A DNA stretch of 61,542 bases, the filler included, from Dirinaria sp. TL-2023a (lineage: Eukaryota), in NCBI GenBank assembly GCA_051941275.1. It is 13 parts of 13 records of this genome, joined end to end, with 100 filler letters (N's around TTAATTAATTAA, not from the genome) between each part and the next. Parts side by side here need not be neighbours in the genome. Positions count along the whole stretch, not along the records: positions 42,730 to 47,362 come from JAVEBF010001810.1; positions 47,463 to 52,092 come from JAVEBF010001811.1; 11 more parts are not named here. The stretch is one strand, 5' to 3'. Position numbers and translations under genes: made by a program. The notes below the pieces were generated by a model that was given only the letters and a program-made list of their open reading frames with translations, made no database searches and was not told the DNA's origin. Shown piece by piece: positions 4,762 through 52,807 of this stretch; position 1 is the stretch's first letter; each line of letters opens with the position of its first letter.

Positions 4762-6326
4762 CTTATTTGTCCTTGACTAGCCGGTTTTACATCGTAATCT
4801 TCGATGCTATGCGACGCTGATCGAGGATATCGCATGTCTGTCTCTGCCCGCTGTTTCTCTTTAGCAAAGTTCTTCGTATATACGGGTTCCAGGATATGCG
4901 AAAATAGTAGCGTTATTAAATAGAAAAGATTGCACAATACAACAATATTAAACCATGTTTTCGAATGCGAATCAATGACTTTGAACTCAGTATATTTAAT
5001 ATCAATTAACTCTTGTAGCAGAGCTGCGAATGTTATGATCAAGAGAAGTTCGGGGGTGATCAGGATGAAATTTCCAGAACATTCCCTCAAAGCCGTCAAG
5101 CCCTTTCATCTTGATGCACAAAGTTCGTCAGGGTAGATAGGTCAGCATCAGCTTTCTCATTGATCCAATATCCCATAACGCGGTGAAAAAGGTTCCCTCG
5201 ATTCCACGGAAAGCATACTCGGGCGCTATGTGTCTGATGACTAGAGTCAATTTGCTCCGAGCATCAGTAGTAACAGCATGATATGCGCACAAACTTCTGA
5301 TGGTGTAATCTCGATACGACTCTATGCTGTGATTGTGCAAAGTCTCTCATCATTCGAAGCATCAGAGTCAAGCGATGCAAAGAAGAGAGCAATGCGAAAA
5401 GAATCTCATGTAGACGCTAAACTCATCTGAAGCTAGCGAAACGTTCGAGAGCATTCTAAGACTCAAATCGCAACACCTTCGTTACAGAAATTGAAATTCC
5501 TTTCTTACTGGAACATGATCGGGTATACGATCTTGTGAGCGAAGGATCTCACCGCGGAGTCATCAAACAATGATGATGAGGGTACGCCACAGAACGCACC
5601 GTACTTGGCAGTTCAGTGTCGCTAGCTAAGGAACTCTGTTGATTGGTCAAGTTGACGGATTGAAGAACCCGTGTACGAGATTTGTTAGAGAAGTCGTTCA
5701 TGCAGAGCGCCCCGCAGGCGCCACTCAAGTGCAGGATCGAATGGAATCAATCCTCTTATGTCCCGGCACATTCAGCCTTACGACAATCCCTGAAGTATGC
5801 GGCTGTCTTGTGCAATTGCAACATTGGTCATGCAGAAACAATTGACTTACTCCGCAGCCGCGTGCAGCCACAAGACTGAGAGCTGTCATATGAAGTCTCA
5901 TGGAGGAAGTCTTTACAAGCAGCGCTCAATCCTCTCAGCCTGATTTTGGCCGGAAATATATCGTCTTAACTCCCGCAATTGTCGAATCGAAGAGTTCGTT
6001 CATCAGCAAAGCAACAATTCCCATCCTCTGCTTTTTCTCTGACTTTAGAGATTGAGGGAACAGCAAACTCTTTTGTACACTTCGCCAATGCGGCTGTTGG
6101 CTGACAGACTGCTGTTCTTTTGCGGTCGTGGCTACCTTCCTAGTATGGCTTGCTCATAGGTATTTCTTTGATTTCTGTCGTAATGTTTGCTTTTGGCAAG
6201 CATGTATGTAGGCAAACACCAGGTGCCTATATGTATTGGGGTCTCCCATAGATACATTTCCATTCCTTAGAGATTATCCACATTAGGTATTTTTCCAATA
6301 CTGACGTACGCGCACCAGCGCAAAGG

Positions 6327-8258
6327 ATGGGTTGCGATCATGAGGCCGGCATTTTTTGTAAGCGCAAATTTAAGGATTCGTCTTTGCAGCAGTCTATCCT
6401 TACACCACCCTGTGCCTTGTGCAAAATCGTTTATCCCTTCTGGAAAGACTATGCCGCCGAATCTCTTGTTTCATCAAAATCGATTCACATCGACGAGAGC
6501 CAGCTCGATGGTCAAAACCAAGCCGCCGCAACTGTTGAGTACGGTGCTGTCGAACCCGTGAAACCGTGCGGGCGAGAACTCAATTTTGACGAGCTGTATT
6601 TGAACCCCCCAGCTCTTGATGACCCAAAAAACAAGTTAGTGGCCCAATTCTTCCAGGTTGAGCTACAGAGTAAACAGATCGGCGAAGCCTATCATGTCCT
6701 TGTATGTGGCCTGCTTCTTCGATATCATCCGTTCAAAATGCGAGTTCTCTTCGAAGAAAAAGAGGGTATAGAACAGATCCTAGACCTCTTTGATTGGTAC
6801 AAAATCGACACGAAACCTGAGGAAACTAACGGTCTTAGCAACAGTAGTAAAAAAAAGGCGACTAAAGTCATTGCTGCTGCTTTCAGGACATCAATTACAC
6901 ACCGAACACCGTCTGGCCACGTCAAATACAATCAGCCTGCACTTTTCAGGCACTTGAGGTCTGAATTAAAGACCCCTGGCGCTGATTTGGTGAAGTGTCG
7001 AGACTTGCATCGCACATACCTCCAGCCTACCTACGCGGCAAAATACTGGTTAAACCGATACTTGAGCCTCACAGGACAAGGCAAGCTTCCGAAGAAAGAC
7101 GATGCTTCGAGACTTGCTGTAATACACATGCGGGGTAGTAGTGCACTAACTCCTGGCCCACGTCAGATGGATTCTGTAAATTTGAAGCATGTTGTTGAAT
7201 CTATAGCACACGCAAACCAGCTTGCACAAAGTGCCAACGAGTCCTGCTTCACACATATCATCTTATACGGCGACTTCGACCACTCTGAGGTTGACGAACG
7301 TAAGAGATTGGTCGAGACTGCCCTTCGGCGAACAAAGCCATCAAACAAAGCGGAGAACGAAGTGAAGCTATTATTCATATCTCGTCCATGGGAGTCTAAC
7401 TCCATAGCTCTTCAAGGCAAGTGTAAAGAGGTCGCTGAGCTGTGGAGGAAATTCCGCGATCTTAGCTTCGACCATCTTCCAATCCAAGTCAAAATTCTCG
7501 CTATATGGACCACTCTTTGCGAGCGATACGACCCTAAAATGTGTGTCATCGGACACCGATCTGGCTTCATCGAAGGGGCTGGATTCATTGGAATTCCTGT
7601 CTTCTACTTGAATAACGAGCGCGAAGACCTTTACTTCAAGAGTAAGGAGGGAGGAGAGCAGAAATTTCAAGCTAGACCAGGCGATCTTTTGTGGAAGACG
7701 CCTGAGAACTCAGATCAGGACAGGCTGCGCGAGCTTGCGGAGGTCATGGATACATTTATCCCGATCGAAGCGCTCAAAAGCGAGGACAAAGGGTTTGTCG
7801 GAATTTACCAAGTCGAGGACAAGTACAAGGATGAGTTGAGCGCCGCGCTTTTCATGTACATGTGCTGCGACGTAGCAACCGGATTGGACCTCCAAGAGTG
7901 GCCATTCTCAAATTTGCAGCGGACGCACCCTATAAACCCGGGGTGGACAGCAAGAGTCGATATGATGCGCGATAAGTGCGAAGGGCATGAGCCTGGTGAG
8001 AAGGGTTGCAAGGATGACTGCCATCTTGAGAACGAAGATATGCCACAGACAGGACAAGAGTGGCTGCGACGACGATATCTTTTTGCAACCCATGCAAGGA
8101 CGATACGACTGTCGCACTGGTCTGGTGTAATGACCGAGAAGTGGACCGGTACCATGGGAATGGGAACTAGGACTGTATCGGGCGAAGACGTTGCCGACTT
8201 AGTAGCTGCACAACGTGCGTCTCACCGCATCGAAGAGAATCAGACCAATGCTATCTAG
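6327..8258 (+). CDS. 643-aa hypothetical protein, possible GT-B glycosyltransferase-like C-terminal half
   Basis: Long uninterrupted ORF; motifs AVIHMRG, IILYGDFD, VIGHRSGFIEGAGFIGIPVFYL. A branch/acceptor-like ctgac...cag at 6301-6318 suggests a possible small upstream exon. Confidence 0.7.
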   Translation: MGCDHEAGIFCKRKFKDSSLQQSILTPPCALCKIVYPFWKDYAAESLVSSKSIHIDESQLDGQNQAAATVEYGAVEPVKPCGRELNFDELYLNPPALDDPKNKLVAQFFQVELQSKQIGEAYHVLVCGLLLRYHPFKMRVLFEEKEGIEQILDLFDWYKIDTKPEETNGLSNSSKKKATKVIAAAFRTSITHRTPSGHVKYNQPALFRHLRSELKTPGADLVKCRDLHRTYLQPTYAAKYWLNRYLSLTGQGKLPKKDDASRLAVIHMRGSSALTPGPRQMDSVNLKHVVESIAHANQLAQSANESCFTHIILYGDFDHSEVDERKRLVETALRRTKPSNKAENEVKLLFISRPWESNSIALQGKCKEVAELWRKFRDLSFDHLPIQVKILAIWTTLCERYDPKMCVIGHRSGFIEGAGFIGIPVFYLNNEREDLYFKSKEGGEQKFQARPGDLLWKTPENSDQDRLRELAEVMDTFIPIEALKSEDKGFVGIYQVEDKYKDELSAALFMYMCCDVATGLDLQEWPFSNLQRTHPINPGWTARVDMMRDKCEGHEPGEKGCKDDCHLENEDMPQTGQEWLRRRYLFATHARTIRLSHWSGVMTEKWTGTMGMGTRTVSGEDVADLVAAQRASHRIEENQTNAI

Positions 8259-39535: not shown

Positions 39536-42500
39536 TCATATGTCGGTCCAGTGCCAGAACAGAGCCGTAACAACCAACGTCTCAATGGTGGAAAGCCAGG
39601 CCCCGATAGCCACACCAGTTTGTTTATCATGCATATAGATGGAAGACAGGCTAGCAATGATGCCACTGAGAAGCAAAGCAATGGTGTAGCCACAGACAAA
39701 TAACTTCCAATTTCTGTCTTCGACGATCTCAATCCCCCAGCCCTTCGCCAGCTTTTCCGTGCTGTAGAAGAGCGAGGAATCGGCCAGCTGGGGAAAGCGC
39801 TTGATCCATGTTTCAGCACCGTCTGCAAGATGGGGTTTGTGGAAGTAGTGGCTGAACGTGCGGGTGTCCATTGGTGGTTCGTCCATCGGCACTGGGTCGA
39901 AGACGTATTTGTATGTTTGAGCCTCTTGCGGCTTCGGAAAAGACGGCCGGCTCATGATGCTAGCGGTCGCTGGACTGCCACTGACCACTAATTTGTCTTT
40001 ACGGAACTGTGGCTATGATTAGAACCGTTCAGGATAAAATGAGGTCGCTCATGGACGCCCTAGGCAATCCGAATATTGAACCATAATCAAATCAAAACTA
40101 TAAATCGGAGCAAAAACCGCAAAAGAAAAGTACCGACCTGGACGAATACGCCTCCATTCGGAACTCTCAGAGCAAAGCCGCCAAGGAGTCTAGTACTACT
40201 TCTCCTTCGTATATACTCCTCTTTGATATTTTTAAAAACTGTTTGGTCCGTTTGTGTCCCCCCAACATCGACCTCACCTAGGACATATGTGTCTGGGCTA
40301 GATCGAATGCAGAGCTCAAGCCATTTAGGGGTCCTTGTTGTTTGCTGGGCCATGGTAGTGTTCGGGCTGCTGCTTACTGCGCTCGGGTGAGGCACGATAT
40401 TAGCTTGCTGATTTAAGCCAGAACTTTGGCCTACGCCACCTGCAGACACGGATCCGGCTGGTCGACCTGTCATGTGAGCTTGAGATGGAACAGTTGGTAC
40501 ATTAGGCGCATTTGAAGGATGTCCCTGCGCCGCTGGGCCGCTGATTACTCGTCCCCCAAGCTGAGCAGCGAGCGTTTGTAAAGATCCCTGGCTTTTCTCG
40601 ACGAAATCGCCATACATGAGATCGCCGCAGCTCTACGCATGTTAGCAGAGTCTTATCACCAAGAGATCAAGACGTATGACCCGTGATGACTTGAACACGT
40701 AGCACGAAGGGGTTCGAAACAAGTAGCACTACTTACGCAGGTCCATTCAATCCGGCTGTAGCCTTTCTGAAGTCCTGGTCGCAGAAGTCTATGGATAGAT
40801 GTTAACTTTAGTAGCTTCTGCGACTCACGTAGAAGCATCAAAGCAAGCGAGCTGAGCTCAATCAATGAATTCACAAGCTTGCCACTCTCCGCTTGTACCC
40901 TCTCCTCCTTGCCCTCACCCGTAATCAGAGTTCTCTGATGGTCATCGCCATGTGTCTCCTCTTTTTCTTCGTGAGCTAACGCTTCCTCGACAGTCGTTGC
41001 ATCAGCTTCAAGGTTATAAGTTTCTAGCTCACTTGAGACTCTTTCTTTTCCTTTCCCATGATAATGCTCATCTTTTTGAGGCTGATTCCTCACCTCAGTC
41101 TCTCGAGCTGACGCATCAAGACGCATGGGAACCACTTTTTCCACCAGCTTGTCATTCTTTGCGTCGAGTGATGCTCTTGGCTTCTCGTGCCCGGGCGCTG
41201 ATTGAATAGGCTGACTTTTGTGCTGCTGCTTCTTCTGCTCCGTCGTGTGTGGTTCTTCAACTCTACTAAGCCCGCTAGGCTCCGTTTGTATTGGTTGCCC
41301 CTTATCTTCGTTCTCGCTGAACACGGTACGTTGTCTCATGCTCTGCTGCCTGCGAAATGGTATTTGAGGAGAAACTAATTCAGAAGACCTTCCTTGATCA
41401 AGAGTCTCTTCCTGAATTCCCAGGGACTTTTGAGACGTCAAACCAGTCTCTTGGCCAAAGACAATCTTTTCTATGACTGTCAAGGAGGACTCTTGCTTAG
41501 CAAGGCTAGCGTACATTGGTTTGCTCCTACCGACTGCCCCCTCAAAATGTTTCCGCGCTTTTTTGTCGATAAATTTACTCGTTCCTTCGTATAGGCGATT
41601 GGGAGACGTGGTGACCAATGTAAATTCACACAACCAGAACTTATCATCTTCGGCTAGGGTTGAAAGGCTCGAAAAATGCTCATATTCTAGGTGGTCGGTG
41701 ATTGAAACCACACATATGAGCTCATAAAGCGTCTTGAAAGGCGGATATGTCTTTCGCAGCCAGCCGCGGAGCTCTTCGGACAACTCGAATCTTCCCGACC
41801 CGGGTGTATCGATGAGAGCTATTGTGCAATTCTCTATCGTGATCGAATACGCTTGTACAGCGGGTGGCGCTGGCTAGAATTAGGTTCAAGATTACCTTCT
41901 TCAATGGACATTGAACGTACCATAAAATGAAATTTTGTTAATAGTCACACTACTAGAAGCAAGGATTTGCTGGATAAAGCGAGACTGCCCAGATTCCGCC
42001 GAGCCCATTACCAAAAAGACAATACCATGGTCTCTACAGAAATTTGAGCAGGCATCTTACTGTTTTCGCGGAGCTACCTACATATTTCTTGTATTTGGTG
42101 GCAATCTAAGCCTTGAGATGTGTGCAGCAAGTCTTTCTTGGAGGTTGCTCATCTTTTTCCTATCGTCCGGTATGGGTTGCATTATCTGCGCCGTCTTTAG
42201 TTTCGGTAGCAACTCCAAGAGATCCGTCAGCGTTTCCTTCGAGGCATTCAGTTCGTTTTCGATTGCTTTATCCATGAAAATGGAATTGGAAATGGATAGC
42301 CATATAGAGACACGGGCAATGGACCGAAAGCTCTGAATCTGATCTGCGACATTAGAGACGACGAGAAGAAGATCTTGATCGCCAAGAAGCGGCTTTATAG
42401 TGTGCTCTAACGATCTAATAATGACAAAGATGGGCCATTTTGAGAGTCCCGTTGGAAATTTTGATGTGAGGTTGGCGAGCCTAGATTGAAGCTTAACCAC

Positions 42501-42629
42501 CTTCTCCTTATCTTCCTCGAAAGACGACCATCGTGTCACTGTTAGCTCATGTTCTATCACCTTGATGATTTGGTCCAACGTCCACTCGCAGGGTTCCAAC
42601 AAGTCTTTAACGTCAACTAAGTGATTCGG
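39536..42629 (-). CDS. Multi-exon hypothetical protein with C-terminal two-TM domain, 5'-truncated (may be more than one gene)
   Basis: Long ORF blocks (375, 176, 150 aa) with splice signals; RIEWTC|xCGDLMYGDF and GWGIEIVE followed by two hydrophobic helices. Confidence 0.6.
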
Positions 42630-42729
42630 NNNNNNNNNNNNNNNNNNNNNNNNNNNNNNNNNNNNNNNNNNNNTTAATTAATTAANNNNNNNNNNNNNNN
42701 NNNNNNNNNNNNNNNNNNNNNNNNNNNNN

Positions 42730-43780
42730 GATCTTTGATTTGATCGATTTTAATTTTTCGATTTATCGTCTAGACTCGTCGACTTCGAAGCGACGATACG
42801 TTCTGAGCGATTCTTAGATTTTTGTTCTTCGAACTTGTCAATGCTTCGATGATTCTCATTCGTGATGTGCTGACGCTTCATAGTTCTCTTCATCATGATC
42901 GTCTGAGTCAATATTTCTTCTCTAGTTTTAAGCACAGTACTCGTGCTAAAAAGCTTAGTCTTAAGATCTGACTTAAGCTTCGCTAAAAAAATATTCGCTC
43001 GATGCTTCTCGAAAAACGCAGACAAATGACTCTTCAGATCTTTCAGATATGTTTTAAAAACAGTTATTTTTTGATCGTTTCGCTGTCGAGCCGACTCTCA
43101 GCGCTCGTACGCAACGAGTCGACGAGTCGTCGAATACGCGACAAAATCTAAAAGAAAGATTTCGAACTGCTTATAAGTAAAGCTGTCAATGTCGATATCA
43201 TTTTTAGTGATCTGATATCACTGAGTGACAGCGTCATCTTTTAACGATTGCATACAAAAAACGATCTTGATGCGATCATTTGAAAAATACTTCGAACTCA
43301 TCAGATATCTAACTTTCGCGTCTCTAAATCATTTAGTATGCTCGCTCTGACTCTCTTCTTTGTAGAGACGCATTTTCTCTGATTTAATGCTTTTGTCTCT
43401 AACAGAGAGAGGCGCAGTCGACTCGACGAATTCAGACAAGAGATCGTTATTTAACTGACGATTCTCTTCTTTCAGATCTCGCAATCGTTGTTGATTTCGT
43501 AACAGCTAATTTTGAGATTTCAAGTCATGAATGCGTTGAGCGAGCTCATCTCGTAAGATATTCGAGCTGTGATTTGACTCAGCGTCGTTTGATAAAGTCG
43601 CGGCGACGAAGAGCGAGCGATCGTTCGAAACGACTTCAAAATCGTCTTTCGATTGTTGAGACTCTGACACTTCACGCGAGAACGTCATCATTATTACACT
43701 TCGAGCCTTTCTCTTCAAAAGATTGAAGTGATTAGAACTGTAAGATCGTATGCGTCGATTACTCGTCGACGCAGTACTTG
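42730..43780 (-). mobile_element. Degenerate Ty3/Gypsy gag and leader
   Basis: Minus-strand frame LYKEESQSEHTK*FRDAKVRYLMSSKYFSNDRIKIVFCMQSLKDDAVTQ*Y resembles retrotransposon Gag; lies directly inside an LTR; TGA stops at Trp positions. Confidence 0.75.
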
Positions 43781-44150
43781 TGTGAAAGACGTGACAGTGT
43801 AATAGATTATATGACTATCTGATACTATAGTTTCTGCTAGAACTAATCACTAAGAATCTTTCTCGAAAGAGTGAGTGATTCTTTATACTTAATCGCGAGC
43901 GTTAACATTGTCTCATCGTGACGAGCCCCGCGCTGACGAATCACGAGCGCTCGTAGACACAATGCTCTATAAACGTCAATCGCTCACTGACTTCTAGTTA
44001 GTCTCGAAATTCAACCTTTCGACGCTGACTTCTAGACGACGCTAGCCATGCTTCAGACCTCGAAGGATTGCCTCTGGGCACCCTCGGCTGCCAAGCGGCG
44101 CTAGTCTGCATTGATCAATATATACCAATGTATCAGGTATCACTGTTACA
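43781..44150 (-). repeat. LTR copy A (370 bp, TG...CA), 5' LTR of a minus-strand element
   Basis: TGTGAAAGACGTG...CTAGTCTGCATTGATCAA...CTGTTACA, homologous at both ends to 44930-45318. Confidence 0.8.
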
Positions 44151-44929
44151 TCGAGCGTCTTGCAACGTGTGATAGATCACAATGACATATATATCTTCTC
44201 TCTCATTTATAATTCTCTCGATTCATTTTCGAGTCTTCGAAAACTACACGGCATCACGAAGTTATTGCTCAGAATTTTTCAGATGATAAGTTTTGACTTG
44301 ATCAGCTGTAACTCGTATGAACGCGCTAAAACGCTTCGAGAAAAAGAAAGAAAGAAAAAACGTGAACTGAGATGTTAAATTTCGATTAATGATACTTCGA
44401 TAAGTGCTTTCGTACTGAATTTGAACTTTCGTCTTTCGAGTCTCGATTGTCACGAATCAGCAGCTCAAATCAAAAATCTTGATGATCAAGATACGCTCAC
44501 AGTTGAAGAAGCTTCGCTGTTGCGAGATTCAATTGCTTGATACGATCGTATAAAATTGTTCATGTCGTTTGCACGTTGTCATTCGCATAATCACGCATTC
44601 GAGACATCTTTGTCTAAAATGCGAATCATGATGTCTCGTACAATCTAAAATAACTTTGACAACTCGTCTCGATTTGTTGCATGTATCGATCGATCTAAAC
44701 GATGATTAACGAAAGTTCTCTCAATCTGATCACGAGACTGTTCATTTCTGCGTATCTCTTATGTCGTCGATCTCTGTATCTCTTGCAAATGTCGCAAGAC
44801 TTTGCACAAACGTATCTCGACTGTTGTCGTTTAGTCATAGAATCACACTATATCTCTTCTGATATTTGCGAGCATATGCGATAACTAATTGTAAGATCGT
44901 ACTGATCTGCTACATACTGACCCGTACTA

Positions 44930-45318
44930 TGTGAAAGACGTGGTAGTGTAATAGATTGGCTTGCTATCTAGTACTATAGTTCTTGCTAGAACTAATCACT
45001 AAGAATCTCAAGAAAGAGTGAGTGGTCTGCTATACATAACTGCGACTTCTAACATCATTCCGCTATCATGTCTCATCATGATCATCTGATGCTAGATAAT
45101 AGAGAGTCAGCAGATATAGTATCTTACAAGCGCTGACTTTTCACTGACGCTTGTGTAGACTAAAAAGCTTGATCTTCGAAAGCTGACGATTCGAAAACGC
45201 ATGTATAATTTTTATACACATGACGTCTATTTATGACTATGATTCTTGATAATCGACGCTCAGTCGACGCTAGTCTGCATTGATCAACATATATCAATAT
45301 CAATATATCGCTGTTACA
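44930..45318 (-). repeat. LTR copy B (389 bp), diverged relative of LTR A
   Basis: Shares termini and the blocks GCTAGAACTAATCACTAAGAATCT and CTAGTCTGCATTGATCAA with LTR A; central part diverged. Confidence 0.8.
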
Positions 45319-46033
45319 TTTGTTTTCTTTTCTGAGCACTGATCTTTAGTGCATTTGCGACTTATTTGAAACTCATTAAAAATCTCTCAACTCAGTAGAA
45401 ATGAAGAAGAAAAAGAGTTCCCTGACGCATTCTAATACGGCGTCTCCTTTCAGCCGATAAATCTCAAAAACTCATAGAGACAAAAATAAACATCTGTCAG
45501 ATAAATAGTTTCGAATAATGTTTGTAAACATATCTTCGTCGCGTGAAAAAGATCTTCATGACGTTGATATCGTGTAGATTTGTATTGTAGATAAACAAAC
45601 CCATCTTGTAGCCATGATGAATAAAATCAGCGCGCACCGACGCTAAGACGGCTAATGAGTAAACAATCATCATATATGTGTTTATTTTTCTGTTTCTTCT
45701 TCTTCTCCTTTTCTTTTCTCTTTACCCTGTCCCCAAAGCACTTTTGATAAGTACTCCTCTTCAAGCACTGATATTAGATCTATTAACAGCGTTCTCCTTT
45801 GAGGACATCACAATCATCATCTGTAAGTATTGTTTTGTCCCAATTTGAGGGTGAGGAGAGGTGCGTTGCTGACGCCGATTGCGAGTCAGCGCTCATCAAC
45901 ATCATCATCAACATCATCACATCTCTCTCTGCTCTCTTTTTTTTTTTTTTTGTTTGAAGATGACGGCCCTTCGGCCAATTTGTAAGCGCTGACGCCCCTG
46001 CGGCGCGAGATCGGGATGCTAACAAATTATAAG

Positions 46034-46648
46034 GGAGGAAGACCTTTCGTGCACCGCGTGCTTGAGGAGACGCGACTGCATTCGAGACGTTGGTCCGTGC
46101 GATTGATGCAAGAAGCACCGCCATGATCAACGTCGATGTATCGACGTAAGTTTCCTCTGCGCTGACTGTACAGCGGCGCGTCTATCGCGCTGACTCAGCA
46201 GCGGCGCACGTCTTCTTCGCTTGAAATTTCGCGCTAACGAAAATAGTTTATCGCAGATCATCGCTTCGAGATGAAAGTCTGTCTGCGTCTGCTTGCCTTC
46301 TGGGAGGCGAATCTCACCCGAGCGCTCCGACGAAGAGCCGATCAGCGGATGAAGCAGATTCGTAAGCTGTCTCGTCAGTGAAGGACGTCTCGTGATCATA
46401 CTTCGGTCACGGCGAATATCAGTTATCATCGTATCCGTCACCTCGAAGATGAGATGAACACGCTGCGGGTGCAGCTGAAAGATGTCGAGGGTCAGCTTGC
46501 TGATGCTCGTAGTCAACTGACTGCGCGGGCTGTCGCGATGTGGGAGGACGAGGAGGAGGACGATGAGGAGAAGAGAGAGATGGATGTGCTCTTCGGCTCT
46601 GCGGAGACGAAGTCGGGGGGGGAAGAAGAGAAAGAGGAGATGGACTGA
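46034..46648 (+). pseudogene. Spliced six-Cys (Zn2Cys6-like) + coiled-coil + acidic-tail pseudogene
   Basis: CTAC-x5-C-x6-CD*C-x9-C; intron 46146-46246 (GTAAGT..GCTAAC..TAG) in frame with ORF 46454-46648; TGA stops at 46104 and 46379. Confidence 0.55.
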
Positions 46649-47462
46649 GGCCCTCTCGAGGGCGAGAAGGAGGAAGAAAAGATGGAGAAGGAGGAATGAG
46701 AAGGATTCGTCGACGAATCGGCGAAGGAGGAAGAGGTGAAGGAGGATTCGAAGATGGTGGCGAAGCGAACGCGCAGCTTTCTGATTCGACAGACCGAGAA
46801 GCGTGCGCGTCGCGCTCGTCATCGGGAGAGAAAGAGAAAGAGAGAGAAGACGGCGGCGGCGGAGATGAGCAGCAGAGATCTCTTGCTGTTCACATCGTAG
46901 CTGCCTCGCGGCGACTACGATGAGGTCGACGTGAGTCGCTCTTTTCTGCTCACACGAGTTGAGTACTCTCTTCTTTTGAGAGTCATTATCTTTTCTGCTC
47001 TGTGTGTTTTTTTTTTCTTCTTTATTAAGGAGTAGTTTAATTATTTTTTCTTCTTTTTGATCTGCGCTGATTTTGCGTCGACTCGTCTCTGCGCTTGCTC
47101 GACGACGACGCAGACTTTCTCTGCTTCTCATTGATCTGCTCGTGCATATTATACTCGTCTCGTAACTGAGACGCAGTATTAAATTTCTTTTTCGAAAGTC
47201 ACTGATTATACTCATCGTCTCAATCTGCTCATTTCATCTTGTATCAAATTTCGTTCTGATTGTGAATTTTATTCACAATTTGTTTCATTTCTCACATTTT
47301 CTCGTTCTCAATGAGCTCTGAAAGAATGCTCGTTTCCATCCCTACAGTAGCAGTACTTTAACNNNNNNNNNNNNNNNNNNNNNNNNNNNNNNNNNNNNNN
47401 NNNNNNTTAATTAATTAANNNNNNNNNNNNNNNNNNNNNNNNNNNNNNNNNNNNNNNNNNNN

Positions 47463-49262
47463 CTGTTTAGACTCAAAGAACAAGACATATTCAAAAAGAA
47501 AAAGATTGAGATTTTAGAATTCTTGTACGAAAATTTCGTTCACGTATGTCACGAGAACACTGTCGTCATAACAGAAGAGTATAGTCAATGAGTTTATAAC
47601 GTCACGCTCGTGAAGATGAAGAACGAATTTAAGAATCGATTGAGACAGACATACGAAGAGAATCGTCATTGAAAAAAGATAATGAATCTCGTCAAAAATG
47701 ACTCAAGCGATGACTCTCAAAACGATGATCACGATCGTGATATTAAGTTTAAAATGCAAAATGATCTGCTATATTACGTATCTGATCAAGAACATCTACG
47801 TCTATGCATACTCGAGATCATGAAGCAGAAGATTTTTGAGATAACTCACGATCAAACTCATCACGAGAGTTTTCATCGTACATACGATCGTATTGCTTCG
47901 TCAATCTATATACGATAGTTTATCAAACGGCTCAGAAATTACATCACTCATTGCTCAAATTGTCAATTGAATCAGACTAAAAGACACTCAATTTATGACG
48001 AGTTAAATTCTATCGTCACGTCTTCAATCTCTTTTCACATCGTAGCGATGAACTGAATCGTTGATCTTCTCATCTTCAAGGACGAATTCGATATCATGTT
48101 GACGATAATCGATAAGTTCACTAAAAGAATCTTATTGCTATCAGAAAAAGACATCTGAGATACACTCAAATGGGTCTCGATCATAGTCATCGCGTTAATT
48201 GACCATGACTGAGACGTACCTCGATCGATAATTAACGACAGAGATCCGAAGTTTATGTTCGATTTTTGGACGACGGTATTCAAGAAAATGAGCGTTAAGA
48301 TGTTGACATCGACAGCTCATCACTCACAGACAGATGAACAATCAGAGAGAACGAATCAGATTATTGAGATAGCTCTTAGATTTCATCTTACAGCGCACTC
48401 AGAAGACGATTGATCAGAAGTTCTTTCGTATTTACAAGCAGAGTTCAATAACGTGACTCATGTCATCACTGACTTCGCTTCAAATGAGCTTGCATACGAC
48501 TTCAAAGTTCACGATGCTTTAAGTCTCTTGTCGAATTTGTCAGTCGAAAAGTTCGATCGTTTACGTCAAATCAAACGCGAAGATACAGACGTCGTCATGA
48601 CGTTCGCGAGCGCAATAAATAAAACTCGTTACGACAGACTTCACAAGAGCATAGCAAGTATGATACAATCGAGTACTATGATTTATCTACGATTTTATCA
48701 GAGCTATACGATTCTCGAGCTAGCAAACAGAAAACTGTCGCAGCAGCGAGTCGAATCATTCAAGATTCTCGAAGCAGTCGAAAAAGAACGTCAGACTTTT
48801 CGTCTAAAACTATCTTCAATAATGAAAATACATTCAGTCATCTTCATAACGCAACTTGAGCTCGTTGTCAAAGATAAAGACTCGTATAACAGATTTACGA
48901 ATGACAATGTCGAAGTCGTAGTCGACAAGTACATCGACACTGAAGCGTCGTCGTACGAGATAGAACGTCTTTTAGTCAAACGAATTATCAGAGACAAGCT
49001 CTACTATTTGATCAAATGAAAAAGGATTGATAACGAACATAATATCTGATATTCTATCAGCGATTTGAAAAATGCGATCGAACTAGTAGCTGATTATGAA
49101 CATCGTCTGATCAATAAATCAAACGAAGAAAAACAGTTGCTACTCAAACGTCGCTCAGAACGTTCGGTCAATAAGAATAATCAGTCGATCAGCAAACGAA
49201 ATGAGAACAATCAGTTAGTATTCAAACGTCGCTCAAAGCGCTCGCGAAAGCAGATGTCATGA
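47463..49262 (+). mobile_element. Degenerate Ty3/Gypsy (chromovirus) pol: integrase and chromodomain
   Basis: HHCC finger (HDQTHH...CSNC), MN*IVDL, IINDRDPKF, HSQTDEQSERTNQ, KIHSVI, chromodomain YEIERLL...YLIK*. Confidence 0.92.
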
Positions 49263-49536
49263 CAATCTCATAACATCGTTCGCAATGACGTTAAACTAAT
49301 TATCTTGCATCTTATTGACATTATTTAGCGAGGCCAATTGAGACTCGCAGTCAACTTCACTTTAGTATGCGGCAAAACCTCATCTTATTGATCAATACAG
49401 CATTTCTTCAGCCAAGTTCGAGCGCATTTTGTGTGTAAGCAAGCTGAATCAAGACTATTTTTGACTATTCAGCATACTAGTTAGAACGCGATCTCTGAAG
49501 TTAGACGCGTTCACAAATGAATACATTTATCTCATC

Positions 49537-50928
49537 TTGCACTTGAATCTTCTAACTCACATTTCTCTCTCTCTCACATTCTTCTTGTCAGTCATTATCA
49601 TCAATCTCAGCATTCATGAAGATCAAATTGTAGCAGAGAAATCGACTCAAAAGATCGTTCAACGAATCACATCGCGTTCATTCTATCGCTCAAAATTTTC
49701 GTTGCTTTTCAATCTGACACGAGCTGCTGTTTAAGAAAATACGACAGCAAGCACGTCTTACATCACGAAGTCAATCTTTCAAGAAGAAAAGCTCGACGAT
49801 TACGTCTCACGAGAAAATCAGCTGACAGCTGAAAGAATAAGAGCTAGAGAAACAGCGCGAATAAAGCAACTGATTACGTTATATGAACAGTCAATTCTAT
49901 CAGTCGCGAATGATTCTGTATCAGTAATTGACATCTTTACGTTACAAAATTTCATCGACATGACCCTCAAGAAGAAGCAGAACGATGCATCGAACCTTTA
50001 CATATTCGATGAGAACGTTTCTCATCACACTACACAAATGAACTTTAGCGAATTCGTTTCTTTATCAGAAAACGTCGTTCTGAGCGACGCGTGATTGTTT
50101 CACGCACGAATGATACAGCTCAGAAAACGATTCAAGCTATTTTCAGAGAGTTTCAATTCTCATGACGAGATTAGACAAAACGCACATGGCCACGAAAAAA
50201 CAATTTTAATATCGAACGAAGAAGGACGTTTGCGATATCTCATAATTATGAGAAACATTCAGCTATTAGAGCAAAAAGGGATCGAGGATGACGTATATCT
50301 GATCAGAAAAAAGGTCAAAACAGATCTTAGCAGTCGTTACAAACTAGACGACATCGTCTCACAGTCTAAGGAGATCTCAATGTCAAAGGTCACAATGTCA
50401 TTCAAACGAAAGCAACCTACTCTCGAATCAGAACGGGTCCCCTTCGAATCGTCACAAGCAGCTTCGTCAGTACTCTCAGAAACGACTGCGAACACTATCA
50501 TCTCGTTAACGAAGAAAGTCAAACTTGTCAGTCTCAAAATCATCATTACTCTGACATCGAAAAAGACAGACATCGTCATACTTGATGACGACTTGTCTGA
50601 GCTTTCAGTCTCGAAACCCAAACTCACATTTAGTCAACTGAAAGGAATGCGAGCAATCTTTCAGAGAGCAAGAGATCATGCTCAAGAGAATAAGATCAAT
50701 CTTTTGACCATTTTTCACGCAGCAGACGCGCTTCAGACTAATCTCAGCGTCGAAACGACTCTTCGAATGATCGAGCAATTAAGAGACAGATACGTCGATG
50801 AAAGAAGCATGATGACACATGAAAAGAAAACTGAAAGGGAATACGAATGATACGATCTACTTTGAATCGATAAGAACATCGACGAAGTCATCAAGTTCGG
50901 AGCTAGAATGATAAATCAAAGGGACTAG
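49537..50928 (+). pseudogene. Additional degenerate ORF 3' of pol inside the Gypsy element
   Basis: One frame of ~460 codons broken by only a few stops (49732, 50092, 50848, ~50863); same CC/GG depletion as pol; ends just before a PPT/LTR-like junction. Confidence 0.55.
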
Positions 50929-50930
50929 AA

Positions 50931-51010
50931 GCGACGAGAACGTCGCTTTTTCTTTTGTGGGTGACAGTTGTTAGGGTTCTAGACCCTGAGGCCGGCTTGG
51001 CGGCCTCATT
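50931..51010 (+). repeat. Putative PPT region and start of 3' LTR (TGTTAGGG at 50969)
   Basis: Hairpin GCGACG-agaa-CGTCGC, T-tract, degraded G-rich tract, then TG; LTR end not determinable. Confidence 0.45.
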
Positions 51011-52807
51011 AGTCATCAGGTAGTACTTAGAGGACGATTGTCCCATCAAATGGACACCATCTTCCTCCCAGATCATGATTTCCCAATAAGATCCGTTTAT
51101 ATATCTTCAGCCTCCCTCTCTCTCTCCTCACACACAAATCTAAAACCACCAGAACCACCAACAATAAAACCATTCCTCAATCAAGAAAAGAAAGACCACC
51201 AAAAAAACCCCGACCATCCTCAAACTCAGCGAAAAACCGGCTAAAGTTTATGAACACTCCGCCTCATCATGCAGCATATAGAAGCTGCATCTACATACCA
51301 CAAATATCGACATTCGACTTACGTTGTCACTCTTACCGCTATTCTTTTCTCTTCTTCTACAAACGAATACAAGACGACTCAGAAAAGCCGAATTCCGCTG
51401 CGCATGGGATATATTTCTTTTCCAGTCCCCACGGCTTTCTGTTCCTGTTTCTGTGTGCAATAAACTTTTCATGTATAAATTTATATAAAAATTATTGTGT
51501 ATAGAATGAGAGGGCGTATATCTCTCCTTTTCTTTATTCCCCCTTTTGGTTCCATTCTTCCGTTTGTGTTGGGGACTCTTGTTCTACACTTTGTATAGAT
51601 TAGCACTGTTAGCGAGGTATATACCCCATTAATAAAACCCAATCCAAATCCAAATCCAAAAAAATCATATTGAAACGCCTTATCCCCTTTCCTAATCCCC
51701 CTAGTCCAACAAAGTACAAACTTCCCTAATAATCTCCTCCTATGTTCCCAATCACTCGACACTCAGTCAGTCAAGTCCTCTTACAAAAATCCAAATCTAA
51801 ACTAGATACCGCCGTCGATCGCGGGGTCAGTGTAAAGTACTTAGGTGCAGATTCGAATTTCATGCGATGCTGATCTCTAATCCAAACCCAATCTACACAC
51901 AGACCAATCAAACATCATCCCCCTTTACCTCCCTCCGAATCTAAAAACTCCCAACTCACTCACTCCACTCTACTCCACTCCAATCCACAGCAAACTATAC
52001 CAAACTCAAAACCTACCCAAAAAAAAAAAAAAAAAAAGAAAGAAAGAAAGAAAGAAAGAAAAGAAAAGAAAAGAAAAAGGAGGGGGTAGAACNNNNNNNN
52101 NNNNNNNNNNNNNNNNNNNNNNNNNNNNNNNNNNNNTTAATTAATTAANNNNNNNNNNNNNNNNNNNNNNNNNNNNNNNNNNNNNNNNNNNNGAGATTGA
52201 TAGGAGGGGACGGGGTGGGGGGTTTGAATGCAGGGCACTACAGGGCTAAGTTAAGAGTGGATATGGGTATGGAAGGATGTATTATTTTTGGTTTTGGCTC
52301 ATTACTATGATCAGAAATATGAAAGTAATTCTATGGTGGGATATAAGCTCGGCAGGGTGGAAAATTTTCAACCTCGTGATTAATCTTGCTTCGTTAAGAT
52401 TAATTACTAGATACATAGATAATTATCGTTCTAATGATTTCCTCTCCCGTCGTCACTCCCAGTAGGCGGTGAGCCGTTCCGCGGTTTTTGGATTGGACTT
52501 TTTTTTGTCGGGGTCTTGATGGTGTTAAAGCTAGGTTTGAAGGATTTTGCCAGGTATGCAGGAGAGATTGGAGAGTGCTAGGTCTTTGAGAATGCTCACT
52601 TTCGCGCGTGAGTGTAGATGGGGGTATTTGGTTTTTAATTGTCATTCATACCTCCGTTTGCTAACAGGGTTGGCTCTTCTGGCTCGGTATGTGAGCGGGT
52701 ATGATATTTCCGATATTACGATTGGCTCTTGCATATTACAGCGTTGATTCAGAAATCGGGCAATGTATGGTAGTGAATGTGATTCTTGCCATTGCAATCC
52801 CGTGACA

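Follow-up and report, generated by a model that had tools for sequence, protein, structure and literature searches.

What process could strip a fungal retrotransposon of nearly all its CC and GG dinucleotides and leave CpA and CpG in place? The question is raised by a 61,542-nucleotide stretch of the Dirinaria sp. TL-2023a assembly (GCA_051941275.1; hereafter the window), in which about 5.9 kb of long terminal repeat (LTR) retroelement DNA, located in two of 13 pieces, has a CC+GG content of about one tenth of expectation (observed/expected ratio, O/E, ~0.1). Repeat-induced point mutation, or RIP, is usually diagnosed from a CpA-to-TpA footprint, on which the widely used indices and tools depend. 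Hypermutation that removes CC and GG but spares CpA and CpG escapes such CpA-based measures. In the DNA described here, cytosine followed by cytosine (CpC) has become TpC, on both strands, and we think it probable that this is the work of a RIP-type repeat hypermutation whose preferred 3' neighbour has moved from A to C. If so, the base that is read beside the target cytosine can change completely.

Note that the window consists of 13 pieces of about 4.6 kb, with a spacer (44 N, 12 nucleotides, 44 N) between each piece and the next, and that the order of the pieces has no genomic meaning. The hypermutated DNA lies in piece 10 (42730-47362; JAVEBF010001810.1) and piece 11 (47463-52092; JAVEBF010001811.1), which share no DNA similarity with each other.

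Loss of CC and GG from transposon DNA

Taking the means of 1000 shuffles per block as expected dinucleotide counts, we find two CC and two GG at 42730-43780, where 83.0 are expected and the lowest of the shuffles holds 63; the original prediction, made by eye, had put the number at about four, which is exact. CC+GG counts are similarly low at 44201-45400 (7 observed, 81 expected), at 46950-47362 (4 against 29, with 15 in the lowest of 1000 shuffles) and at 47463-49022 (9 against 108), and depletion is weaker at 49023-50850 (31 against 141, O/E ~0.2). In none of the depleted blocks do the shuffles ever approach the observed counts. When the strands are considered separately over 47463-50850, CC occurs 17 times against 140 expected and GG 23 times against 109.

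Within the window, the depletion is restricted to transposon DNA. Per kilobase, CC+GG O/E is 0.08-0.14 in the core blocks and 0.68-1.18 for every kilobase outside 42001-51000, and the other 51,079 bases of the window, gene-bearing pieces included, stand at 0.95. The proposed contrast is present between transposon DNA and the gene-bearing pieces of the window, and depleted blocks occur in both contigs, as had been claimed. The range originally given, 42730-50928, holds for the core blocks and fails in between, where the depletion is broken at ~45600-46900, at 44040-44140 and at the spacer (47363-47462). The second of these breaks is a patch of about 100 bp within an LTR-like repeat copy in which CC/GG content is normal (14 in 44001-44200). 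The features of pieces 10 and 11 are as follows.

42730..43760, minus strand: degenerate frame, probable gag of an LTR retroelement, cut by the piece end and nearly free of CC/GG
43781..44929, no strand assigned: LTR-like repeat copy 1, starting TGTGAAAG, CC/GG-depleted except for the patch at 44040-44140
44930..45600, no strand assigned: LTR-like repeat copy 2, CC/GG-depleted to ~45400-45600, matching copy 1 in stretches only
45601..46949, no strand assigned: un- or half-affected low-complexity stretch, GC content 53-56%, CC+GG O/E ~0.3-0.8 per 200 bp
46950..47362, no strand assigned: second depleted block, closing piece 10, 4 CC+GG against 29 expected
47463..49163, plus strand: C-terminal part of a Ty3/gypsy pol, a pseudogene, with H2C2 zinc finger, integrase core and Tf2-1-type SH3/chromo end
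49164..50940, no strand assigned: depleted DNA downstream of pol, with the border to normal composition at ~50940-50950
49564-50850, plus strand: degenerate 429-codon frame with 3 stops, within depleted DNA
50941..52092, no strand assigned: normal flank, CC+GG O/E ~1.1

The composition of the affected DNA has a distinctive profile. TC/GA (O/E 1.5-1.7) and CG (1.5-1.9) are high, CA/TG is at ~1.0 and TA, at 0.6, is not raised, so that CA/TG and CG are as abundant as the first inspection had suggested. CCGG is absent where 8 are expected, and TCGA has an O/E of 3.9. With TCG at 2.66, TTG at 1.06 and CAA at 1.00, a basidiomycete-type hypermutation of TCG/CpG is ruled out. The GC content of the affected blocks is 35-41%, and arithmetic on the counts, together with the mass balance given below, indicates that the drop from ~49% to ~38% GC is fully explained by CC/GG loss.

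How would such DNA score by the classical measures? The thresholds, TpA/ApT above 0.89 and (CpA+TpG)/(ApC+GpT) below 1.03, are passed by the repeats of Endocarpon pusillum, with 1.47 and 0.70, according to the relevant part of the paper on that fungus (PMC3897900). Unlike those repeats, the blocks in the window fail the classical indices, with TpA/ApT at 0.53-0.70, the substrate index at 0.93-1.26 and the composite index between -0.22 and -0.73. The composite index is negative in all four depleted blocks and in all four control pieces alike; the classical values of the blocks equal those of control genes, and the expectation that standard indices would under-detect the signature was correct. 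The ratio (TC+GA)/(CC+GG), on the other hand, is 11-36 in affected blocks versus 1.0-1.6 in genes. Transposon annotation, RIP scoring and de-RIP reconstruction of lichen genomes accordingly need a CpC index.

Direction of change in the integrase codons

Low counts alone do not say which base was changed, and for this we turn to the pol pseudogene in piece 11. It is cut by the piece start and has eight in-frame stops, seven TGA and one TAG. Pfam recognises Integrase_H2C2 (E 3.2e-9) and SH3_Tf2-1 (E 1e-3) in it and leaves the rve core undetected because of mutational damage. A HMMER search with the integrase, with X at the stops, returns 13,207 matches (best E 3e-120), and intact polyproteins align with the window by tblastn over 47592-49163 at 39-47% identity. 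H2C2, SH3_Tf2-1 and the LTR-like direct repeat together bear out the Ty3/gypsy identity; reverse transcriptase and RNase H lie beyond the pieces.

For comparison we used 40 of the 77 best HMMER matches with a normal Pro and Gly content, and we scored the 205 columns in which at least 60% of these intact homologues agree. Conserved Pro, Gly and Trp codons are kept at 3 of 39 positions, compared with 18 of 19 for His, Gln and Cys. When Arg is added to the second group the comparison becomes 3/39 versus 32/34 (Fisher p = 6e-15), and at a consensus threshold of 0.8 it is 3/28 for Pro, Gly and Trp versus 14/14 for His, Gln and Cys. The fates of the lost codons are equally specific: none of the 12 Gly is kept (Asp, Glu and Ser have replaced it at 4 positions each, and every one of these Ser is AGY after g), one of the 20 Pro is kept (12 are Ser, written TCN, 4 are Leu, written CTC, and 3 are others), and two of the 7 Trp are kept, with 4 now TGA. 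By contrast, 8 of 9 His, all 7 Gln, all 3 Cys and 14 of 15 Arg survive, with CGN retained in eight of the surviving Arg codons. As Pro, Gly and Trp were lost but His, Gln, Cys and Arg were kept, CpA and CpG were spared in the window. Only two events resemble CpA changes, namely a Tyr in place of one His and the lone TAG stop.

The same rule is obeyed across codon borders, where after g GAY has become AAY (Asp to Asn) and GTN has become ATN (Val to Ile), and within codons, where ACC has become ATC (Thr to Ile), GCC has become GTC (Ala to Val) and TCC has become TTC (Ser to Phe). On the sense strand, both C-to-T changes (Pro to Ser) and G-to-A changes (Gly to Asp or Glu) are saturated.

A dinucleotide mass balance, with five unmutated homologous integrase stretches as the reference, points the same way. 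Per kilobase, the window differs from the reference by -114 CC/GG, -40 GC, +64 TC/GA, +46 TT/AA, +31 AT, +8 CT/AG and +1 CG. The change is therefore CpC to TpC, in which the 5' C is altered, and not CpC to CpT. Editing of the APOBEC3G type is contradicted by the occurrence of GG to GA and CC to TC on the same strand and by the gain of 64 TC/GA versus 8 CT/AG per kilobase.

Codon fates and mass balance thus bear out the direction that the original prediction had read from integrase motifs, GG to GA and CC to TC on both strands. Its derivation of HSQTDEQSE from HPQTDGQSE is likewise sound, P288 being now TCA and G292 now GAA. The derivation of the TGA at 48054 from Trp fares less well: Trp is one GG-to-GA step away and is the most parsimonious ancestor, but Phe stands at that position in 95% of the 40 homologues.

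The LTR-like direct repeat has less to offer. Its two copies match over 79 nt at 86% and 44 nt at 73%, or over 118 nt at 80.5% in a second comparison, and at a few sites beside the patch at 44040-44140 copy 1 has GG or CC where copy 2 has GA or TC. The minus-strand frame at 42730..43760 has 5 stops in 343 codons (3 TGA, 1 TAG, 1 TAA), and a single Pro, with neither Gly nor Trp. An LTR retroelement on the minus strand probably had its gag here, a label given only by position beside the LTR-like repeat because Pfam assigned 0 families to the frame. Between the depleted blocks, the stretch at 45600-47233 has TC/GA at 1.7, and a 368-amino-acid open frame on the minus strand at 46127-47233 matches no Pfam family. 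The same is true of the 429-codon frame at 49564-50850, and Pfam finds 0 families in the normal flank.

Related elements in metagenome contigs

Rates of change by context require copies at different stages of mutation, and these are available among relatives of the window's element. Pro and Gly together make up at most 1% of the residues in 48 of the 150 best HMMER matches and in 38 of 62 further proteins from a word-based search; the ten low-Pro/Gly matches that were looked up come from metagenome assemblies. Scanning metagenome contigs with an alignment of such Pro/Gly-poor proteins yielded 80 loci, of which 51 contain a 2-kb stretch with CC+GG O/E below 0.25. Some loci are depleted over their whole length of more than 13 kb (O/E 0.01-0.06; L015 0.01, L054 0.02, L064 0.03), and others have sharp borders to normal DNA (L021, L051, L062), the flank of L062 carrying a gene for an ascomycete-type F-box protein. 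At the DNA level, the window's element matches the 80 loci over short stretches only, at 64-77% identity. Among the loci, the same families hold both less-mutated and heavily mutated copies.

Public databases already carry a trace of this process. Locus L017 encodes a full-length, 99.7% match to the protein P0088 (398 amino acids, 11 Trp) only under a code in which TGA means Trp: each of the 11 Trp is written TGA, and TGG is not used. For P0318, on L009, the counts are 6 TGA and 3 TGG. Evidently, gene callers chose the TGA=Trp code for hypermutated fungal contigs, which is an annotation artefact: changes from Trp to TGA cause this code to be picked, and long false proteins free of Pro and Gly enter public databases as a result.

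Locus L009 includes, at 6010-7530, a nearly intact 1.5-kb integrase stretch (CC+GG O/E 0.85) inside an otherwise fully depleted block of more than 13 kb. This stretch, which could be a late insertion, a product of gene conversion or a local escape, served as a reference copy for the rate estimates. Across 10 pairs of less-mutated and heavily mutated copies, the fraction of cytosines that now read T is 0.61-0.96 at CpC, 0.09-0.37 at CpG, 0.02-0.14 at CpA and 0.06-0.24 at CpT. CpC is highest in 10 of 10 metagenome pairs, which is the opposite of what the original prediction had named as grounds for its rejection, namely a rate at CpA or CpG equal to or above that at CpC. Pooling three independent pairs, we obtain 281/345 (81%) for NCC, 147/674 (22%) for NCG, 34/711 (5%) for NCA and 68/811 (8%) for NCT. 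It is the 3' neighbour that decides: the rate at NCC is 0.73-0.93 across all four 5' bases, with no effect of the 5' base. The two strands behave alike at CpC (133/172 versus 148/173).

The rule seen in the window is seen again at the protein level. When 17 heavily depleted sequences (16 loci and piece 11) are compared with one intact protein, 1% of 538 Pro, 1% of 363 Gly and 2% of 128 Trp are kept and 90 Trp positions are now stops; the corresponding values for His, Cys, Gln and Arg are 56%, 62%, 39% and 33%.

These data bear on two alternative sources of the pattern. First, it might be an artefact of assembly or sequencing, the mark of foreign DNA that is naturally low in CC/GG, or the result of dipyrimidine damage by sunlight. 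The window is after all a set of joined pieces, and the affected ones differ in GC from the rest. Yet the affected DNA includes a recognisable pol with Pro, Gly and Trp codons altered as predicted and with TGA stops, the rule recurs in many independent public contigs, and mutated and unmutated copies of one family coexist. Ultraviolet damage would not stop at the edges of transposons, and the base it mainly alters is the 3' one of TC and CC, whereas TC is enriched here. We find this group of explanations hardly credible.

Second, an APOBEC-like or other single-strand DNA deaminase might have edited complementary DNA (cDNA) during reverse transcription. The affected window DNA is a retroelement, and in animals cytidine deaminases are well known to hypermutate such elements. 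APOBEC3G in particular changes the 3' C of CC, on minus-strand cDNA only, so that GG becomes AG on the sense strand and retroelements are filled with stops. The case at hand is like APOBEC3G in that a CC dinucleotide is involved and a retroelement is riddled with stops, and unlike it in that mutation strikes the 5' C and does so on both strands, with GG becoming GA. More generally, known AID/APOBEC enzymes read the 5' side, whereas here the 3' neighbour decides and the 5' base is without effect. The equality of the strands, together with saturation of both types of change on the sense strand, is not expected from cDNA editing, and unbroken depletion over more than 13 kb exceeds the length of a single element. 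Editing of cDNA is therefore very improbable.

Several context types coexist in the metagenome loci: CpC only, CpC plus CpG, CpG-sparing and canonical CpA. Another retroelement family (L034, L037-L041, L043-L048, L050, L052, L053, L057, L063, L069 and L073, all of one assembly series), whose copies are 85-88% identical, retains CpG at 0.07-0.4 of the expected level and has lost CC/GG in part only (0.33-0.8), with CA/TG at 1.3-1.6; in this signature CpG dominates and CpC is an added component. The canonical CpA type is seen in L023 (CA/TG 0.13, TA 1.36, CC/GG 1.43, GC 25%). In L016, L026, L029, L033 and L055 (GC 24-30%, CC/GG 0.13-0.26, CG 2.0-2.35), nearly all contexts but CpG seem to have been mutated.

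A probable RIP-type process, its precedents and its likely host

What kind of process might be responsible? The dead LTR retrotransposon DNA has undergone a directional and, in our reading, fast C:G-to-T:A hypermutation of both strands, whose target is a cytosine with a 3' cytosine, CpC becoming TpC and, on the opposite strand, GpG becoming GpA. Running close to saturation, it converted Pro to Ser, Leu or Phe, Gly to Asp, Glu or Ser, and Trp to TGA. Duplicated DNA may be recognised before meiosis and then deaminated by a cytosine methyltransferase-like enzyme of the RID or DIM-2 type, in which the preference for the base after the target would have shifted from A to C. We favour this RIP-type reading because C-to-T changes affect both strands, transposon blocks have sharp borders, mutation is near saturation, other substitutions are few and specificity lies in the 3' base. 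Codon fates, mass balance, copy-pair rates and negative classical indices likewise support the RIP-like system with a shifted target that the original prediction had envisaged. The duplication trigger, the premeiotic timing and the RID/DIM-2-like enzyme are suggested by analogy with RIP and may each prove to differ.

A slower route to the same pattern can be imagined, in which heterochromatic transposons carry CpC-biased methylation and 5-methylcytosine deaminates spontaneously, with no meiotic sensing of duplication. Such decay is expected to leave the same footprint, on both strands, governed by the 3' neighbour and confined to sharp-bordered transposon blocks. However, an ageing pseudogene should gather ordinary substitutions too, and copies at 85-91% identity differ almost solely at CpC and CpG. 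CpC is near saturation (78/81 and 106/121), transitions outnumber transversions by 217:5, 204:6 and 180:3, and in the closest pairs reverse T-to-C changes stand at 0-0.02. We therefore regard slow decay as unlikely.

Some observations nevertheless weigh against a RIP-type process with a shifted target, or limit what can be drawn from the evidence for it. An identical footprint would result if cytosines were methylated in a specific context and then deaminated outside meiosis. The patch at 44040-44140 in the window and the 1.5 kb in L009 are short islands that escaped depletion. The LTR-like pair can be aligned over ~190 nt, with both copies mutated, and what the window itself offers is evidence from codons and composition; the rates at the DNA level were obtained from metagenome contigs and not from this genome, and the 10 pairs rest on just three less-mutated reference copies. 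In the metagenome relatives 9-37% of CpG is lost as well, a loss not seen in the window, so the processes may differ. Finally, the patterns used in the scan came from mutated proteins, which makes the yield of loci uninformative on prevalence.

Keeping these points in mind, how does the favoured RIP-type process compare with known systems? It is like RIP of Neurospora crassa and most Pezizomycotina in its C:G-to-T:A changes on both strands, sharp-bordered repeat blocks, possible saturation and Pezizomycotina host, and like Neurospora RIP in that the 3' base sets specificity and further neighbours have little effect. For Neurospora, the dominance of the 3' neighbour and the minor role of further neighbours have been linked to base-flipping methyltransferases, as far as the available part of that study goes (bioRxiv 10.1101/344036). 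It is unlike canonical RIP in that CpC is the preferred target and CpA is left alone (a rate of 5% in relatives, and survival of 18 of 19 His, Gln and Cys codons in the window), TpA shows no enrichment, classical indices are negative and GC falls only to ~38%.

Differences between fungi in the dinucleotide preferred by RIP-like processes have a precedent. In the pertinent sections of the RIPCAL paper (PMC2621366), most fungi show CpA, the MATE element of Aspergillus nidulans CpG and then CpA, and Ty1 of Microbotryum violaceum TCG to TTG; these sections also include, among four formal classes, a CpC-to-TpC class with its own index, and name no organism for it. CpG, at 22%, is the second target in the metagenome relatives. 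The window is unlike such CpG-biased systems in that it keeps CpG (CG O/E 1.5-1.9, TCG 2.66, 8 conserved Arg still CGN). As the fourth RIPCAL class, so far unused to judge from those sections, CpC offers a natural contrast for locating the part of RID or DIM-2 that sets the context.

RIP has also been described in lichen fungi. The accessible text on Cladonia rangiformis reports homologues of RID and DIM-2 and strong RIP by GC content, with repeats at 10-20% GC, and contains none of the words dinucleotide, CpA or TpA (PMC12542154). For Xanthoria, strong RIP is reported by way of large RIP-affected regions, and the part of the preprint concerned does not give the dinucleotide context (bioRxiv 10.1101/2025.11.25.690456). 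Going by these partial accounts, the window is like Cladonia, Xanthoria and Endocarpon in the kind of host, in having LTR retrotransposons as targets and in its sharp compartments, and unlike the Cladonia repeats in that its blocks have 35-41% GC.

A 2025 survey of 1,239 species states, in the portion consulted here, that RIP-like defences share a preference for CpA, and its table s037 gives a 'no_rip' score to all three of its lecanoromycete genomes, those of Lasallia pustulata and of two Letharia species (PMC12543289). We found no published report of CpC-dominant RIP in full-text searches, a coverage that leaves out most subscription journals. CpC-type hypermutation is probably widespread in lichen-associated ascomycetes. 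More tentatively, and with less confidence than we have in the RIP-type process itself, we raise the possibility that lichen-forming Lecanoromycetes, and perhaps fungi that live with them, possess a 'C before C' defence mediated by a strongly diverged RID or DIM-2 or by another enzyme that modifies cytosine in double-stranded DNA. If this were true, a class of fungi with heavy RIP-type mutation would be invisible to CpA-based indices, the 3'-neighbour rule would be evolving fast between lineages, and the apparent conflict between 'no_rip' lecanoromycetes in the consulted portion of the survey (PMC12543289) and reports of strong RIP by GC content from single genomes could be explained.

The host is most likely a lichen-forming lecanoromycete, to judge from one gene and one transposon family in the sequence. 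The gene is that of a QDE-2-like Argonaute, whose Piwi-bearing frame shares 76% identity with a protein under the label Heterodermia aff. obscurata and 79% with another labelled cf. Caloplaca sp. 3; its further matches are at most 69% identical and come from non-lichen ascomycetes. The transposon family is the retroelement's, whose named relatives are from Lasallia pustulata only. Heterodermia, Caloplaca and Lasallia pustulata are all Lecanoromycetes, and it is these matches that lead us to this reading of the host. A domain scan of 32 open reading frames of the window found no methyltransferase domain. Outside pieces 10 and 11, the window carries ordinary fungal genes, including those for Argonaute, an ankyrin protein, P450 fragments, an M28 peptidase, an AAA ATPase, MIF and Got1. 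The Argonaute gene (18976-22091, plus strand) consists of two adjacent open frames, the first with ArgoN and L1 and the second with L2, Mid and Piwi, which are probably split by an intron or a frame change.

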